This document shows positions 1,762 through 63,392 of a stretch of DNA of 64,000 nucleotides, one piece after another. Source of the DNA: Escherichia virus TH58; the sequence record MT446423.1; one strand, given 5' to 3'. Under the pieces are notes generated by a model. The model did no database searches and was not told the origin of the DNA. It was given only the letters and a program-made list of their open reading frames with translations. The position numbers and the translations under genes were made by a program. Position 1 is the first letter of the stretch, and each line of letters starts with the position of its first letter.

Positions 1762-3582
1762 ATGATTAAAAATGAAATTAAGGTATTGTCAGACGTAGAA
1801 CATATTAAGAAACGTAGTGGCATGTATATTGGTTCTTCGGCCAAAGAAGCCCACGAGCGTTTTTTGTTTGGTAAATATCAACAAGTTGAATATGTTCCTG
1901 GTCTGGTTAAATTAATCGATGAGATTATTGACAACTCGGTTGATGAAGCTATTCGTACATCATTTAAGTTTGCAAATAAAATTGATGTGCAAATTAAAAA
2001 TAATCAAGTTTCTGTTGAAGATAACGGACGTGGTATTCCTCAAGGTTTAGTTACCGACCAAACAGGTGAACAAATTCCTGGGCCTGTAGCAGCCTGGACT
2101 ATTCCAAAGGCTGGCGGTAACTTTGGTGATGACTCTGAACGTAAGACTGGTGGTATGAATGGCGTCGGTAGTAGTTTAACTAATATCTTCTCTACGTTGT
2201 TTACAGGCATCACGTCAGATGGTGAAAATGAAATCACTGTTAACTGTTCAAATGGAATGGAAAACAAATCATGGACTTCTAAGAAATCTAAAGGTAAAGG
2301 CACTAAAGTAATCTTCACTCCTGATTTCTCTTCATTCGAAGAGCATAATTTATCTCAAATTTATTTAGATATTACTTTAGACCGACTTCAAACATTGGCA
2401 GTCGTTTATCCTGATATCAAGTTCACATTTAATGGTAAAAAGGTTGATGGTAATTTTAAACGATTTGCTAAACAATTTGGCGAAGATAACATCATTCAAG
2501 AAAATGATAAAGTCTCTATAGCATTCACAACATCACCAGACGGCTTCCGTCATTTAACTTATGTGAATAACATCCATACCAAAAATGGCGGTCATCATGT
2601 TGAATGTGTAATGGATGATATCTGCGAACATCTTTTGCCGGGTATTAAAAAGAAATATAAGGGTATTGAAGTCACTAAAGCTCGTGTTAAAGAATGTCTC
2701 ACAATGTTGATGTTTATTAGAGACATGAGCAACATGCGTTTTGATTCTCAGACTAAAGAACGTTTAACGTCAACGTATGGTGATATTCGTAATCATATCC
2801 AATTGGATGCTAAGAAAATTGCTCAGGCACTTCTTAAAAACGAAGCCTTGATTATGCCTATTGTTGAAGCAGCATTAGCTCGTAAATTGGCAGCAGAAAA
2901 GGCTGCAGAAACTAAAGCAGCTAAAAAGGCAACTAAAGCTAAGGTTCATAAGCATATTAAAGCTAACCAATGTGGTAAAGATGCAGATACGACATTGTTT
3001 TTAACAGAAGGTGATTCGGCAATTGGTTATCTCATTGATGTTCGTGACCGTGAACTACACGGCGGATTCCCATTACGTGGTAAGGTGATGAATAGCTGGG
3101 GTATGTCATATGCTGATATGATGAAGAACAAAGAGCTCTTTGATATCTGTGCTATCACAGGTCTTATTCTTGGTGAAAAGGCAGAGAATACAAACTATCG
3201 TAATATTGCAATTATGACCGATGCCGATCATGACGGTCTTGGAAGTATTTACCCGGCTTTGCTTGCTTTCTTTAGTAATTGGCCTGAATTGTTTGAACAA
3301 GGACGTATTCGCTTTGTTAAAACACCTGTAATTATTGCACAAATTGGCAAAACTCAAAAATGGTTTTATACTGTAGCTGAGTATGAAGAAGCCAAAGATA
3401 CACTGCCTAAGCATAGTATTCGATACATCAAGGGATTGGGCTCACTTCAGCGGGATGAATATAAAGAAATGATTCAAAACCCTGTGTACGATGTAGTTAA
3501 ACTTCCTGAAAATTGGAAAGAACTATTTGAAATGCTCATGGGTAACGACCCTGAACTCCGTAAAGACTGGATGCTTGGTTAA
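1762..3582 (+). CDS. 39: DNA topoisomerase II large subunit, uninterrupted gp39 + gp60-equivalent (606 aa)
   Basis: GyrB-like GHKL ATPase motifs (MYIGSS, NSVDEA, EDNGRGIP) and Toprim-like C-terminal part; length fits the fused T2-type gene rather than split T4 39/60. Confidence 0.93.
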   Translation: MIKNEIKVLSDVEHIKKRSGMYIGSSAKEAHERFLFGKYQQVEYVPGLVKLIDEIIDNSVDEAIRTSFKFANKIDVQIKNNQVSVEDNGRGIPQGLVTDQTGEQIPGPVAAWTIPKAGGNFGDDSERKTGGMNGVGSSLTNIFSTLFTGITSDGENEITVNCSNGMENKSWTSKKSKGKGTKVIFTPDFSSFEEHNLSQIYLDITLDRLQTLAVVYPDIKFTFNGKKVDGNFKRFAKQFGEDNIIQENDKVSIAFTTSPDGFRHLTYVNNIHTKNGGHHVECVMDDICEHLLPGIKKKYKGIEVTKARVKECLTMLMFIRDMSNMRFDSQTKERLTSTYGDIRNHIQLDAKKIAQALLKNEALIMPIVEAALARKLAAEKAAETKAAKKATKAKVHKHIKANQCGKDADTTLFLTEGDSAIGYLIDVRDRELHGGFPLRGKVMNSWGMSYADMMKNKELFDICAITGLILGEKAENTNYRNIAIMTDADHDGLGSIYPALLAFFSNWPELFEQGRIRFVKTPVIIAQIGKTQKWFYTVAEYEEAKDTLPKHSIRYIKGLGSLQRDEYKEMIQNPVYDVVKLPENWKELFEMLMGNDPELRKDWMLG

Positions 3583-10400: not shown

Positions 10401-10547
10401 ATGGTAACATGGATTATTGCATTGCTGTGTTGGACGTTTTTATTCGTTAACACTTTAGTTACAGGCGAAACAACAGTATTTCAACAGGCGGTGTCACAAG
10501 GTACTTTAGCGGTCTTAGCTCTTTTTAACGTATTAAAAGGCGAGTAA
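10401..10547 (+). CDS. small membrane protein, 48 aa (ac-like position)
   Basis: Not in ORF track; own translation MVTWIIALLCWTFLFVNTLVTGETTVFQQAVSQGTLAVLALFNVLKGE; RBS GAGG upstream. Confidence 0.4.
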   Translation: MVTWIIALLCWTFLFVNTLVTGETTVFQQAVSQGTLAVLALFNVLKGE

Positions 10548-10687
10548 TGATTAAGAAAATCTTAGCAGGAGCCTTCGGGCTCTTGTTGTTGCTTATGGTT
10601 CTGTACTATGGTGTGATGTTTGGACTAATCCAAGTAGTGCTTTTCATTTCAGATGTTATAATGACTATTCGTTCATTAATATGGTGA
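10547..10687 (+). CDS. small membrane protein, 46 aa
   Basis: Not in ORF track; MIKKILAGAFGLLLLLMVLYYGVMFGLIQVVLFISDVIMTIRSLIW; start overlaps previous stop (TAATG). Confidence 0.35.
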   Translation: MIKKILAGAFGLLLLLMVLYYGVMFGLIQVVLFISDVIMTIRSLIW

Positions 10688-10691
10688 AAAT

Positions 10692-12017
10692 ATGCAATTG
10701 AATTCTCGTAATCTAAAAAGTATTATTGATAACGAAGCCTTAGCATATGCTATGTACACCGTTGAAAACCGTGCAATCCCAAACATGATTGATGGATTTA
10801 AGCCGGTTCAACGTTTTGTAGTTCATCGTGCATTAGATTTGGCTCGTGGTAATAAAGAAAAATTTCATAAACTTGCGTCAATTGCAGGTGGTGTAGCAGA
10901 CCTTGGATATCATCATGGTGAAATCTCTGCGCAAGACGCAGGTGCTTTGATGGCTAATACTTGGAATAATAACTTTCCTCTGTTAGATGGTCAAGGAAAC
11001 TTTGGTTCTAGAACAGTCCAAAAAGCTGCAGCATCTCGTTATATTTTTGCTCGTGTAAGTAAAAATTTCTATAACGTATATAAAGATACTGAATATGCTC
11101 CAGCTCATGAAGATAAAGAACACGTTCCACCAAAATTCTATCTTCCTATTATTCCGACAGTTCTTTTGAATGGTGTCTCCGGTATTGCAACCGGTTATGC
11201 AACAAATATTCTGCCTCATAGTTTTAAATCGGTCAAAAAGGCGGTATTACAAGCTCTTCAAGGTAAAAATGTCACTAAGCCAAAAGTTGAATTCCCAGAA
11301 TTCCGTGGTGAAGTGCATGAAGTTGATGGGCGTTATGAGATTCACGGAACATACAAGTTCACATCTCGTACTCAAATGCAGATAACTGAAATCCCATATA
11401 AATTCGACCGTGAAACGTATGTGAGTAAGGTTCTTGACCCGTTGGAAGACAAAGGTCTAATCTCATGGGAAGATGATTGTGGTGAACACGGCTTTGGGTT
11501 TAAGGTGAAGTTCCGTAAAGAGTACTCGCTTCCTGATGATGAAGAGCTACGTCATGAAAAAATCATGAAAGATTTTAGTCTCATCGAACGTCGCTCACAA
11601 AACATCACAGTGATTAATGAAAAGGGTAAATTAGCGGTCTACGATAACGTAGTGGACTTAATCAAAGATTTTGTTGAAGTCCGTAAGACTTACGTTCAGA
11701 AACGTATTGACAACAAAATCCTTGAATCTGAAAAAGCATTTAAACTGGCTTTTGCTAAGGCACACTTCATCAAAAAAGTTATCAGTGGCGAAATTGTGAT
11801 TCAAGGCAAGACCCGTAAAGCTTTGACTGAAGAGCTAGCACAAATCGAAATGTACAAAGAACATGTCGATAAACTGGTGGGTCTTAACATCTTCCATATC
11901 ACTTCTGACGAAGCACGTAAACTGGCAGAAGAAGCTAAAGCTAAGAAAGAAGAAAATGAGTATTGGAAGTCTACTGATGTTGTGACAGAGTACACTAAAG
12001 ACTTGGAGGCGCTTTGA
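10692..12017 (+). CDS. 52: DNA topoisomerase II medium subunit (GyrA-like)
   Basis: 441 aa, same as T4 gp52; GyrA-type N-terminus (AMYTVENRAIP, GFKPVQR, HHGE). Confidence 0.93.
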   Translation: MQLNSRNLKSIIDNEALAYAMYTVENRAIPNMIDGFKPVQRFVVHRALDLARGNKEKFHKLASIAGGVADLGYHHGEISAQDAGALMANTWNNNFPLLDGQGNFGSRTVQKAAASRYIFARVSKNFYNVYKDTEYAPAHEDKEHVPPKFYLPIIPTVLLNGVSGIATGYATNILPHSFKSVKKAVLQALQGKNVTKPKVEFPEFRGEVHEVDGRYEIHGTYKFTSRTQMQITEIPYKFDRETYVSKVLDPLEDKGLISWEDDCGEHGFGFKVKFRKEYSLPDDEELRHEKIMKDFSLIERRSQNITVINEKGKLAVYDNVVDLIKDFVEVRKTYVQKRIDNKILESEKAFKLAFAKAHFIKKVISGEIVIQGKTRKALTEELAQIEMYKEHVDKLVGLNIFHITSDEARKLAEEAKAKKEENEYWKSTDVVTEYTKDLEAL

Positions 12018-12093
12018 GTGCCCTAGCCTTAGGATTTCTCGGTGCAATAGCTGCACTAGTGATTTGGCTGTATTGGTTAGACAAACATGATTA

Positions 12094-12120
12094 GGGAGCT
12101 TCGGCTCCCTTTTGTGCATT
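12094..12120 (+). terminator. rho-independent terminator (GGGAGCTTCGGCTCCC + T-rich)
   Basis: Perfect stem with UUCG loop, TTTTgTgcaTTTTTTT. Confidence 0.65.
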
Positions 12121-12136
12121 TTTTTCTCACAAAACA

Positions 12137-12165
12137 GTTTACATGTGCTTCAAACATGATATTAT
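12137..12165 (+). promoter_or_regulatory. T4 early-type promoter upstream of motA
   Basis: GTTTAC 12137-12142, TATTAT 12160-12165, spacer 17. Confidence 0.5.
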
Positions 12166-12204: not shown

Positions 12205-12837
12205 ATGTCTAAAGTTACTTACATCATCAAAGCTTCTGAAAACGCTCTGAATGAAAAAACTGCTGCAATAATGGTTTATATCATTAAGAACAACTTCACC
12301 ACTGCTGCCAATGTCCGTGAAGCTCTGGAAGCAGAATACAATGCATCAGTTGTTAACTCTAACATTGGTGTATTGATTAAGAAAGGTTTAGTCGAAAAAT
12401 CAGGTGATGGACTTGTAGCAACAGGCGAAGCAATGGATATTATCCAAAAAGCCGCAGACCTCTTTGCCCAAGAAAATGCTCCAGAACTTCTTCAGAAACG
12501 TAACACCAGAAAAGCACGTGGAGTTACTCCTGAAATGCATGAATTAGCAAACTTTGTTTTTGAAAATATTAAAGATAAAGTTGAAGTTAAAGAAATTGGC
12601 GAAAACCGTAGTAACTTAGAAGTTCGATTTGCAAAACGAGTTCTAGGTATTCGCCAGATCGAAATTCGTCGAGATGGTTCTCTTAGAATCTTTGCGTACA
12701 ACATGTCAGAAACTGAATCAAAGCTGTTTACTTCTCTTGAAAATGATGTTAAGATTAAAATCGGTGGTAAATATACTTACATTGACTTCCCTAATGTGTC
12801 CAAAGAAATCATTACCCTTGTAACTAACGTACTGTGA
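12205..12837 (+). CDS. motA: middle-transcription activator MotA
   Basis: 210 aa; N-terminus MSKVTYIIKAS and NSNIGVLIKKGLVEKSGDGL match recalled T4 MotA. Confidence 0.93.
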   Translation: MSKVTYIIKASENALNEKTAAIMVYIIKNNFTTAANVREALEAEYNASVVNSNIGVLIKKGLVEKSGDGLVATGEAMDIIQKAADLFAQENAPELLQKRNTRKARGVTPEMHELANFVFENIKDKVEVKEIGENRSNLEVRFAKRVLGIRQIEIRRDGSLRIFAYNMSETESKLFTSLENDVKIKIGGKYTYIDFPNVSKEIITLVTNVL

Positions 12838-53444: not shown

Positions 53445-55217
53445 TTAATTAACACCGGTGGCATGGAAAATTCCAGGAGCCGTTGTACTTGTTACAGGGG
53501 TCATATTCTGGACTACGGTATTCTTTTTGACGACATTATTTGTGTTACTAATCGCCGCTACCGGTTGCTGTTGTTTAGATTCAGAAGCACGTCCTTTCTC
53601 TATTGACTGAACTTGTTTTGCTTCAGGAGATTTAGTCGAAGATTCAGGCTTAACTGTTGTCTGAGCCTTTTTGGCTTCAGCCATTTTATTATTTAGCTTT
53701 TCAAATCTAGCATCTAATTCCTTTTTAACAACAGGAGTTTTATTAAGTTCAGGGTCTTTAATAAGTTTACTTAAATCAGCATAAGACTTCTCGACGTTTT
53801 TAGCATTTTCCGGATTAGTCATATCGATTTTATCGATATAATCCTCAAATCTAACTAGTGCAGCACGAGTTTCATTAGCTTTTATATACGCCTCTTTACG
53901 TTCCTCTTCAGGTAACTCTTTTAATTTTGCTGATTCCGCAGCACGCTCATCGCTTGTACTAAACTCTTCTTTATTGTCATTACCACGAACCCAGTTAGTA
54001 ACGAATGTTTTGCCGCGTTGTAACATATCAAGACCTTTAGAAACGGTTCCTAATTCCCCATCATCACGCTTCATTTGATATTTAGCGACTTTCTCTTGGT
54101 CTTCTTTCTTTAATGTGTTCCCAGTAGTTTCTTGGAATCCTTCCAAAGCACGTCCTTCTATTTCGTCCGCGGTATCACCAAAACCTATAGCACGCAATAT
54201 AGACGCAGAGAGTTTAGCCATTCCTAATTGAATTAGTTCACCTAAGTTCATTAATGCTGTTCCTACACCTTTGACAATAGCAACGGTTAAACCACCCCAG
54301 TCTCCAGCTTCCCACAATTGTTTTATAGAGTCAATAGAAGTGAATATATCACTTAAGAATTTACCCCACTCTTTAGCTTCATCAGAGAATTTAGTAAAGT
54401 TTTCATCAAATAAATCCCAGGCAGAAGTGAACTTGTCTGTCCAATATTTGAAATGGACTATCAATAAATCAATACCGATAACAATACCAAGAATAAGTGC
54501 GGCCATTTTTGCTGCTTCAATAGCAGCCGTTATAGTGTATTTGAAAAGCATTCCAGCAATTCTGTCTGAAATTGATATTGATTTATTAAACCCGGTTTGA
54601 ACTGTTTTGGTGAGCATTGCAATTTTATCGCTCAATTTAAAGCTAATTCCGCCTTTAGAATCGGAAGTAGAATTAGCACTTTCTTGAACCGGGACCGGGA
54701 AGAAATCTTCGTCTGGCTTATTATCAATCTTTTCAGGTGTAGGTAATGCTTTAAACAACTCATCAGAAGTTTCGTTCTCAACCACTTTAACAGGTATCGC
54801 GTTCTCAATTACTTCAAGAGAGGTGCCTCCTGTATTTTGAATAGCGGTAGATGTTTGTAATTTTTGCTCTAATAATGTAGCTAATCGGTCTAACTTGGAG
54901 CTTATTGCACTAGAAACTTCGTTTATACTTTTAGTGACTTCAGTTTGTTTTTCAATAACTTCTGCGATAAGCTCTGTGCCTTCAGCAGTATTATCTGTCG
55001 AATTCTTTAAGTCTCCAATTGATTCAATAATTCCATTGCCTTTATCTTCTACACTTTGTGATGTGAGTTCAGACGCGGCTTGGACATCGTCTAGTTTTGA
55101 TGAAATGTCATTCAATGCTTCTAATGAATCAGTAGCTGCTGTTGCAGCTACTTTTTGTGGTTTATTATCGGCAATGACCTTATTTCTACGCATGGATTTC
55201 ATTTCTTCAGGTTTCAT
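53445..55217 (-). CDS. 29: baseplate hub subunit / tail length determinator gp29
   Basis: 590 aa as T4 gp29. Confidence 0.9.
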   Translation of the reverse strand: MKPEEMKSMRRNKVIADNKPQKVAATAATDSLEALNDISSKLDDVQAASELTSQSVEDKGNGIIESIGDLKNSTDNTAEGTELIAEVIEKQTEVTKSINEVSSAISSKLDRLATLLEQKLQTSTAIQNTGGTSLEVIENAIPVKVVENETSDELFKALPTPEKIDNKPDEDFFPVPVQESANSTSDSKGGISFKLSDKIAMLTKTVQTGFNKSISISDRIAGMLFKYTITAAIEAAKMAALILGIVIGIDLLIVHFKYWTDKFTSAWDLFDENFTKFSDEAKEWGKFLSDIFTSIDSIKQLWEAGDWGGLTVAIVKGVGTALMNLGELIQLGMAKLSASILRAIGFGDTADEIEGRALEGFQETTGNTLKKEDQEKVAKYQMKRDDGELGTVSKGLDMLQRGKTFVTNWVRGNDNKEEFSTSDERAAESAKLKELPEEERKEAYIKANETRAALVRFEDYIDKIDMTNPENAKNVEKSYADLSKLIKDPELNKTPVVKKELDARFEKLNNKMAEAKKAQTTVKPESSTKSPEAKQVQSIEKGRASESKQQQPVAAISNTNNVVKKNTVVQNMTPVTSTTAPGIFHATGVN

Positions 55218-62261: not shown

Positions 62262-63392
62262 ATGGCTTTTACAGTTGATATAACTCCTAAAACACCTACT
62301 GGAGTTATAGATGAGACTAAGCAGTTTACTGCTACTCCCAGCGGTGAAACTGGAGGTGGAACTATTACCTATGCATGGAGTGTAGACGGTGCTCCTCAAG
62401 TAGGATCGGCAGAAACTTTTGATTATGTGTTAAAAGGACCTGCTGGAATAAAAACAATTAAAGTTGTTGCAACAAATACTATTCCTGATACCGACGCTGA
62501 AACAGCAGAAATTACTACGACTATCACAGTTAAAAATAAAACTCAGACAACTACGTTGGCAGTAACTCCTAATAGTCCTTCAGCTGGAGTAATTGGAACC
62601 CCGGTTAAATTTACTGCTGCCTTAGCTTCTCAACCGGCTGGAGCGTCTGCTACGTATCAATGGTATGTTGATGATTCTCAAGTTGGCGGAGAAACTAACT
62701 CCACATTTAGCTATACTCCAACTACAAGTGGTGTAAAAAGAATTAAATGTGTAGCCCAAGTAACCGCAACAGATTATGATGCAAAGGAAGTTACTTCGAA
62801 TGAAGTATCATTAACGGTTAATAAGAAGACAATGAATCCACAGGTTACATTGACTCCTCCTTCTATTAATGTTCAACAAGATGCTTCGGCTACATTTACT
62901 GCTAATGTAATTGATGCTCCTGAAGAAGCGCAAATTGCGTATTCATGGAAGAAAGATTCTTCTCCTGTAGAAGGGACAACTAACGTATATACCGTTAATA
63001 CTTCATCTGTTGGAAGTCAAACTATTGAAGTTACTGCAACTATTACTGCAACTGATTACGATAGCAAAACTATTACAGCAGAAGGTCAAGTTCAGGTAAC
63101 TGATAAAGTTGCTCCAGAACCAGAAGGTGAACTACCTTATGTTCATCCTCTTCCACATCGTACTTCAGCTTACATCTGGTGCGGATGGTGGGTTATGGAT
63201 GAAATCCAAAAAATGACCGAAGAAGGTAAAGATTGGAAAACTGAAGATCCAGATAGTAAATATTACTTGCATCGTTACACTCTTCAGAAGATGATGCAAG
63301 ATTATCCAGAAGTTGATGTTCAAGAATCACGTAATGGATACATCATTCATAAAACTGCTTTAGAAACTGGTATCATCTATACATATCCATAA
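62262..63392 (+). CDS. hoc: highly immunogenic outer capsid protein Hoc
   Basis: 376 aa; near-identical to recalled T4 Hoc, including C-terminal capsid-binding region (YVHPLPHR, YIWCGWWVMDEIQKMTEEGKDWK). Confidence 0.95.
   Translation: MAFTVDITPKTPTGVIDETKQFTATPSGETGGGTITYAWSVDGAPQVGSAETFDYVLKGPAGIKTIKVVATNTIPDTDAETAEITTTITVKNKTQTTTLAVTPNSPSAGVIGTPVKFTAALASQPAGASATYQWYVDDSQVGGETNSTFSYTPTTSGVKRIKCVAQVTATDYDAKEVTSNEVSLTVNKKTMNPQVTLTPPSINVQQDASATFTANVIDAPEEAQIAYSWKKDSSPVEGTTNVYTVNTSSVGSQTIEVTATITATDYDSKTITAEGQVQVTDKVAPEPEGELPYVHPLPHRTSAYIWCGWWVMDEIQKMTEEGKDWKTEDPDSKYYLHRYTLQKMMQDYPEVDVQESRNGYIIHKTALETGIIYTYP

Follow-up and report, generated by a model that had tools for sequence, protein, structure and literature searches.

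A small hydrophobic reading frame in the motA.1 position of Escherichia virus TH58, probably encoding a translationally coupled membrane microprotein

In phage T4, the small gene motA.1 lies between gene 52 and motA and encodes a 49-amino-acid (aa) 'hypothetical predicted periplasmic protein' (AAD42608.1, UniProt P39512, phrog_3487). Here we analyse the corresponding position of Escherichia virus TH58 (sequence record MT446423.1) in a stretch of 64,000 nucleotides (nt), called the window in the following, which represents the early-gene region of a Mosigvirus (RB69-like, T4 group). It contains a 26-codon open reading frame (ORF), hereafter the small ORF, that resembles T4 motA.1 in its location between gene 52 and motA, the 4-nt overlap of its start with the TGA of gene 52, its hydrophobic product, its expected early transcript and the terminator that follows. 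Yet it is half as long, starts with TTG instead of ATG, has a predicted hairpin over its start that is absent from T4, and displays no sequence similarity to its T4 counterpart. In the literature we searched, motA.1 appears only in a terminator table, a knock-down screen and an omics table, and no study of its function was found.

The small ORF itself is already known from one annotation. An identical 26-aa protein is present in NCBI (YP_010247053.1, 'hypothetical protein D299_gp206') from the RefSeq version of phage HX01, a member of the same genus, whose annotation at the corresponding coordinates has the same ORF of 81 nt with its overlap of the gene 52 stop; the two do not differ and are the same gene. 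Another counterpart is the annotated 34-aa ORF of Dhakavirus and JS09-type Mosigvirus (phrog_16377, e.g. UAW07025.1), which shares with the small ORF its slot (the interval from the gene 52 stop to the next hairpin), the geometry GGAGG-N4-start-TGA, a predicted hairpin over the Shine-Dalgarno (SD) sequence and the start, an apolar helix with a charged tail, and a cUUCGg hairpin whose foot contains the stop. The two sequences are nevertheless unrelated (48% DNA identity, unalignable, between flanks that are 95-97% identical), and the 34-aa ORF differs in its ATG start, its much more stable start hairpin and its strong purifying selection. T4 Ac and gp52.1, both predicted to be membrane proteins, are, like the putative product of the small ORF, tiny hydrophobic early products of the same cluster, but they are encoded on the other side of gene 52 and show no sequence similarity to it; acridine sensitivity is the genetic phenotype associated with Ac. 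Bacterial small membrane proteins of the AcrZ, MgtR and KdpF type, which modulate larger membrane proteins, are comparable in size, in their single helix and in their small-xxx-small motifs, a resemblance that comes without homology or a known partner. We propose that the small ORF is probably a translationally coupled, dispensable inner-membrane microprotein gene, that is, a genuine, weakly constrained accessory gene of RB69-like Mosigvirus and an analogue of motA.1 in position rather than a homologue in sequence.

The small ORF and its junction with gene 52

Gene 52, which encodes the 441-aa medium subunit of DNA topoisomerase II (annotated gp52 or DNA topoisomerase II in relatives and in T4), occupies positions 10692..12017 on the plus strand. 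It is separated by a 187-nt gap, within which the small ORF is found, from motA (activator of middle transcription, 210 aa; 12205..12837, plus strand), the downstream boundary of the slot. The small ORF extends on the plus strand over 12014..12094, from a TTG start to a TAG stop at 12092-12094, with the translation M/LSALALGFLGAIAALVIWLYWLDKHD, the peptide after the initiator residue being SALALGFLGAIAALVIWLYWLDKHD. Rereading the sequence bore out exactly the frame, start codon and length of 26 aa given by the initial annotation. The latter had also located the ORF immediately after gene 52, which is correct for its position but overlooks that the TTG overlaps the gene 52 stop (cTTTGA; TGA at 12015-12017) in a 4-nt TTGA junction, an overlap of the same type as those joining other neighbouring ORFs of the window (e.g. 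13174/13177 and 13464/13467). Its statement that there is no clear ribosome-binding site was wrong, since an SD-like GGAGG lies at 12005..12009 on the plus strand, 4 nt before the TTG and inside the gene 52 codons TTG-GAG-GCG. The locus thus has what we looked for in a coupled gene pair, a start near the upstream stop (UUGA) and an SD inside the upstream gene (GGAGG, 12005-12009).

At its other end, the small ORF runs into an intrinsic-terminator-like hairpin on the plus strand (12093..12113; aGGGAGC-UUCG-GCUCCCu followed by a U-run), made up of GGGAGC at 12094-12099, a TTCG loop, GCTCCC at 12104-12109 and then TTTT, with A12093-T12110 as a seventh pair of the stem. The stop lies in the base of this hairpin, as had been noted before, the G of TAG being the first base of the GGGAGC stem, and the ORF therefore fills the whole gap between the gene 52 stop and the terminator. 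The hairpin is annotated as a terminator in the relatives NRG-P0074, PhAPEC2 and MM02. Our local terminator scan reported it on the minus strand only, because on the plus strand the extended 7-bp stem shortens the T-run. Among the Mosigvirus isolates compared for the loop (L047-L049, L051, L053, L054 and L060), the stem GGGAGC/GCTCCC is constant while the loop (12100-12103 in the window) reads either TTCG or its reverse complement CGAA, so that it looks as if the hairpin had been inverted; the length of the loop changes in two records (L002, -2 nt; L059, +2 nt).

The length of the small ORF is unremarkable on its own, as 18.7% of dinucleotide shuffles of the 75 nt remain open. Its hydrophobic character sets it apart: 22 apolar residues follow one another without interruption, and the highest hydropathy of any 19-residue segment is 2.28. 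Only 0.055% of the shuffles are both open and endowed with an equally good transmembrane-like stretch. Likewise, the window has 548 ORFs of 20-40 aa in its six frames, and with these two values as minima (hydropathy over 19 residues, 2.28; unbroken apolar run, 22 residues), only 2 of them qualify, the small ORF included. The other one is found at 62423-62527 on the minus strand (MIVVVISAVSASVSGIVFVATTLIVFIPAGPFNT). The peptide carries one apolar stretch in the range of ~18-22 residues, i.e. of bilayer-spanning length, as looked for in a single-span protein, and is predicted to consist of one hydrophobic helix (residues 3-22) with small-xxx-small motifs (A3, G7, G10, A14) and a charged DKHD tail. 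A weak local tblastn match elsewhere in the window (54432-54506, minus strand) was discarded, as it corresponds to a transmembrane segment within a 590-aa protein.

The start of the small ORF is predicted to be buried in an RNA hairpin (12003..12026, plus strand; -10.2 kcal/mol in a fold of the 31 nt around the start), in which the SD is paired and the UUG sits in the 3-nt loop. Its z-score against shuffles ranges from -1.5 to -2.2 in sequences of the window type, while a start hairpin of the same design in the Dhaka-type phages reaches -17 kcal/mol (z = -5.1; 0 of 200 shuffles). Together with the UUGA overlap, this hairpin suggests that the ribosomes initiating here are mainly those that have just completed gene 52. 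The course of events that we propose from these sequence features, from translation and coupling to membrane insertion and function, would be the following. The early mRNA of gene 52 would also carry the small ORF; on reaching the UGA of gene 52 and terminating there, a ribosome would melt the hairpin that otherwise hides GGAGG and UUG, and would then re-initiate 1 nt upstream on the UUG, the UUGA overlap providing the translational coupling. The resulting 26-residue peptide, with one apolar helix of 20 residues and a short charged tail, would most likely be inserted as a single span in the inner membrane of the host, where it may affect a membrane protein or the physiology of the membrane or envelope, and would be dispensable in the laboratory.

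The same junction is reminiscent of a programmed frameshift site. The motif GGAGG-CG-CUU-UGA at 12005-12017 resembles the E. coli prfB site in having an SD, a short spacer and CUU UGA, and the +1 frame stays open over 24 codons (ECPSLRISRCNSCTSDLAVLVRQT), so that a prfB-like +1 frameshift could in principle extend the C-terminus of gp52. However, the hydrophobic ORF lies in the -1 and not in the +1 frame, the sequence has no slippery heptamer that would allow a -1 shift, and the +1 frame bears no coding signature, with 3 synonymous to 14 non-synonymous variants. In addition, phage LF82-2 has CUA UGA at this place, and the spacer is 2 nt long versus 3 nt at the prfB site. The frame of the hydrophobic ORF, the ratio in the +1 frame and the CUA UGA of LF82-2 led us to reject such an extension of gp52, which we hold to be highly improbable.

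The slot after gene 52 in other T4-like phages

We surveyed what starts at the gene 52 stop in 38 IMG/VR loci encoding gp52 relatives and in reference phages. In most of these lineages a small hydrophobic ORF starts at, or 7 nt before, the gene 52 stop, encoding 23-77 aa with a grand average of hydropathy (GRAVY) of 1.2-2.7. Next to the 26-aa type of the window, the slot types comprise the 49-aa T4 type, which overlaps gene 52 by ATGA (L004 755-758) and is followed by a terminator, another 49-aa type that is 41% identical to the T4 one (L014-L016, L043), the 34-aa type of Dhakavirus and Mosigvirus JS09, a type of 45-46 aa whose start precedes the gene 52 stop by 7 nt, and types of 23 aa and 77 aa. 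CC31-like phages and some distant ones have no slot ORF. The T4, 34-aa and 45-aa types correspond to three separate PHROGs families of unknown function. Several of these sister cassettes are clearly coding and under purifying selection, which is confined in each case to the annotated frame: the 34-aa type displays 14 synonymous to 3 non-synonymous variants (p = 4e-5), the T4 type 6 to 1 (p = 0.003) and the L014 type 44 to 20 (p = 4e-10).

In the L014/L016 lineage, whose gp52 is 76-78% identical, another hydrophobic ORF of 25-26 aa, M(M)T(F/I)YGLFVGMIFFLWIIYLVIEYFF (L014 ~2954-3031, L016 2969-3049), comes after that of the 49-aa MotA.1 homologue. It overlaps the stop of the first ORF by ATGA and ends in the terminator foot, so that the slot holds two tandem mini-ORFs there. 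The 26-aa peptide of the window appears suggestively similar to this second product (MMTIYGLFVGMIFFLWIIYLVIEYFF) when judged by eye, a candidate relationship that we rejected as its alignment score is no better than that of shuffles (z = 0.44).

The slot is exchanged between genera, as seen when pEK20 (Mosigvirus JS09) is compared by segment with the window and with Dhakavirus (L012). Over gene 52 from -400 to -41, pEK20 is 96.9% identical to the window and 74.0% to Dhakavirus; over the last 40 nt of gene 52 and its stop, the values are 79.1% and 95.3%; over the small ORF, 48.2% and 97.1%; and from after the hairpin to motA +200, 95.3% and 78.2%. The pEK20 hairpin is identical to that of Dhakavirus. 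These identities indicate that the small ORF and the terminator are transferred together, as a single module, from one genus to another.

Four E. coli-phage lineages were checked for where the last small ORF ends, and in all of them (4/4) this point is within the foot of the hairpin or at a distance of 0-4 nt: the stop lies in the hairpin base in the window, the Dhaka-type and the L014/L016 lineages, and 4 nt before the hairpin in T4. That this geometry is kept between ORFs of unrelated sequence, and that ORF and hairpin travel together, would fit a role of translation in cis with an incidental peptide. Re-initiating ribosomes reaching the terminator foot would then shield the gene 52 mRNA at its 3' end against Rho or RNases, or transiently block the hairpin and tune read-through into motA in the manner of pyrBI. 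Such a role leaves unexplained, however, both the uniformly strong hydrophobicity of the cassettes and the purifying selection at the amino-acid level in the sister cassettes. CC31-like phages do without the ORF, and the fold offers no alternative antiterminator pairing. Moreover, motA has its own promoter directly 3' of the terminator, a sigma-70-type early promoter identified by promoter scan (TTTACA-16-TATTAT, TG extended; 12138..12165, plus strand), which serves motA independently of the gene 52 transcript. We thus consider a purely cis-acting role very unlikely. The related possibility of a leader-peptide attenuator of the pyrBI/trp type was rejected: the stop does lie in the hairpin foot, but we found no competing structure, motA is served by its own promoter, and no Rfam leader scored above threshold, the Rfam search giving sub-threshold chance hits only (e.g. 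preQ1-II with 25.8 bits versus a gathering score of 47).

The motA.1 slot, which the small ORF occupies, holds unrelated small hydrophobic ORFs in different T4-like lineages, swapped as a cassette with their terminator. It is also conceivable, if doubtful, that the slot (a few dozen to 230 nt from the gene 52 stop to the next hairpin) is a dedicated, horizontally exchanged site for unrelated single-helix microproteins that are obligatorily coupled to gp52 translation and have a specific role, the peptide of the window being one allele of a diversifying locus. If so, its products could be host-specific envelope, superinfection-exclusion or anti-defence factors, or else membrane tethers of the gp39/52/60 topoisomerase, an enzyme whose association with the membrane in T4 is described in the older literature.

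Conservation and selection within Mosigvirus

A stretch of 701 nt around the small ORF aligns with 153 phage records across 80% or more of its length, with identities of 97-98.5% for the best of them; every record that was read is a Mosigvirus. The 82-nt ORF stretch is common to all 149 matching Mosigvirus records at an identity of at least 90%. Over the small ORF, no length change occurs in the 60 best of these 149 records, and in a spread sample of 60 records a change of length inside the ORF is found in phiEC1 only; in the other length-differing records of that sample, all of which were read except phiC120, the difference lies in the hairpin loop or in the T-run. A metagenome scan with a pattern derived from the end of gene 52 recovered three window-type sequences (two complete, one running off its contig end) and one of the Dhaka type, the remainder being unrelated, and a scan of IMG/VR yielded nothing further. 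Overall, we obtained 26 independent sequences, the window counted (23 phage records and 3 metagenome or IMG/VR contigs), which represent 20 haplotypes, the sampling having favoured records that are divergent in the small-ORF stretch.

The frame, whose disruption in close relatives had been named by the initial annotation as grounds for refuting it, is intact and free of internal stops in 25 of these 26 sequences and is disrupted in one, phiEC1, an UNVERIFIED record. Among the 20 haplotypes we counted 10 synonymous to 7 non-synonymous variants, versus an expected non-synonymous fraction of 0.68 (one-sided p = 0.02), and the frame of the small ORF is the best of the six for synonymous bias. The replacements within the helix are conservative (L4I, L9I, G10S, A14V), and the remaining non-synonymous changes fall in the charged tail. 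The window-type ORF is thus under modest purifying selection and only weakly constrained.

Several observations weigh against a functional coding gene. The TTG, a weak start, is found in 19 of the 20 haplotypes. The selection signal is modest (p = 0.02) and far weaker than in the sister cassettes, and a first, smaller count gave a ratio of 9:8 with p = 0.057. Variants are about twice as dense in the ORF as at the 3' end of gene 52 (0.24 versus 0.11 per nt), in a sample that favoured divergent records. In phiEC1 (KY608965, unannotated), a 1-nt deletion, CCC>CC at 12021-12023, brings a stop at codon 4. In 16 kb compared with the window, the other non-triplet indels of phiEC1 are intergenic or mutually compensating, without net frameshift in long coding ORFs, so that the deletion may be real and cannot be dismissed as a sequencing error; it may fit a dispensable gene as well as a sequencing error. 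The GGAGG is also present in a lineage without slot ORF (L023), since it encodes Leu-Glu-Ala of gp52, and is hence not independent proof of an SD. The 26-aa and 23-aa types have no PHROG match, the 26-aa peptide giving no hit to the phrog_3487 profile at E<=1, and in Smith-Waterman comparisons the 26-aa peptide aligns with the other slot peptides no better than shuffles do (z<1.1; -0.29 with T4 and 0.10 with L014, versus 10.5 for the control T4 with L014). Sharing the slot without such similarity, the small ORF is a positional analogue of MotA.1 and not a demonstrable homologue. As for T4 motA.1, its knock-down had no fitness effect in the main analysis reported in the supplement of PMC11879866, and the supplement of the time-resolved proteome (PMC9697503) assigns it to the early RNA class while giving it no protein class.

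Much of this would also be expected of a decaying or non-functional remnant, i.e. an ancestral motA.1-like cassette that has lost its ATG and is drifting, has stayed open simply owing to the young age of the lineage (95-99% identity), and yields a peptide in negligible amounts or without role. The prevalence of TTG, the weak synonymous excess next to that of the sister cassettes, the raised variant density, the phiEC1 frameshift, the share of shuffles that are open by chance and the dispensability of T4 motA.1 all point in this direction, as does the 23-aa type of another lineage, which displays no selection signal either (3:5). Drift alone, however, does not account well for a frame that is still the best of six, for helix replacements that are all conservative, or for the fact that we found no nonsense allele in the 20 haplotypes of the window type. 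A single indel was found inside the ORF, although many records differ in the length of the hairpin loop and T-run right next to it. An ATG allele exists in the LF82-2 group, created by a synonymous CTT>CTA change in the last codon of gene 52, and the transmembrane-like character lies far above what composition predicts. We therefore regard decay as possible but rather unlikely, and favour a genuine, weakly constrained microprotein gene. The coding interpretation, first put forward as speculative, is strengthened by the motA.1 position with its start/stop overlap, the filling of the gap as far as the terminator, the frame conservation, the selection, the ATG allele and the RefSeq annotation of HX01, and tempered by the weakness of that selection, by the phiEC1 disruption and by the mistaken view of the ribosome-binding site.

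Annotation, neighbouring genes and significance

In the GenBank version of HX01 the small ORF is not covered by any feature, and no sampled record besides RefSeq HX01 was confirmed to annotate it, most being listed without a feature there. Phages a20 and ST2 instead annotate a 29-aa antisense hypothetical ORF at 11995-12084 (minus strand), across the junction between gene 52 and the small ORF, a call that the ST2 record credits to PHANOTATE. Since neither of the two minus-strand frames tested here displays a synonymous excess (4:13 and 2:15), this call is probably spurious. Various records label the 49-aa MotA.1 homologues 'flagellar motor protein MotA', 'transcriptional regulator' or 'periplasmic protein', misnomers that arise because names have been propagated from the neighbouring motA gene.

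Upstream of gene 52, two small hydrophobic ORFs of 48 and 46 aa lie directly 5' of the gene on the plus strand (10401-10547 and 10547-10687). They correspond to T4 ac and 52.1, so that gene 52 is flanked by predicted membrane mini-proteins on both sides. Downstream of the terminator, an additional gene of 71 aa (216 nt; MSKMKLTQNTTTRFGKVKPGMN...; e.g. L002 2004-2219, L054 622-837, L071 485-) precedes motA in many relatives (OLB35, HX01, LF82-2, PhAPEC2, Mizar and others), inserted between the positions corresponding to 12125 and 12204 of the window, which does not have it. In NHEP29 this gene is preceded by a promoter and ribosome-binding-site stretch matching the region upstream of motA in the window, and it is annotated there (L072 369-698) as a 330-nt coding sequence from an upstream ATG inside the 26-aa ORF. 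This longer version is an annotation artefact, arising because a shorter T-run keeps the frame open through the terminator and promoter. T4-type and Dhaka-type phages have variable insertions between the terminator and motA as well, the gap measuring 103-1356 nt.

Collectively, these observations point to a probable gene that is uncalled in every sampled annotation but that of RefSeq HX01, within a much-used group of phages (RB69, HX01, PhAPEC2 and many Mosigvirus isolates that are therapeutic candidates). It is probably because the ORF is short and starts with TTG that it has gone uncalled, and some pipelines call spurious antisense ORFs at this locus in its place. The small ORF leaves the current view of T4-type biology unchanged. 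Interchangeable, unrelated hydrophobic microproteins that move together with a terminator would provide a small, well-defined natural set of alleles for asking what such phage microproteins do.

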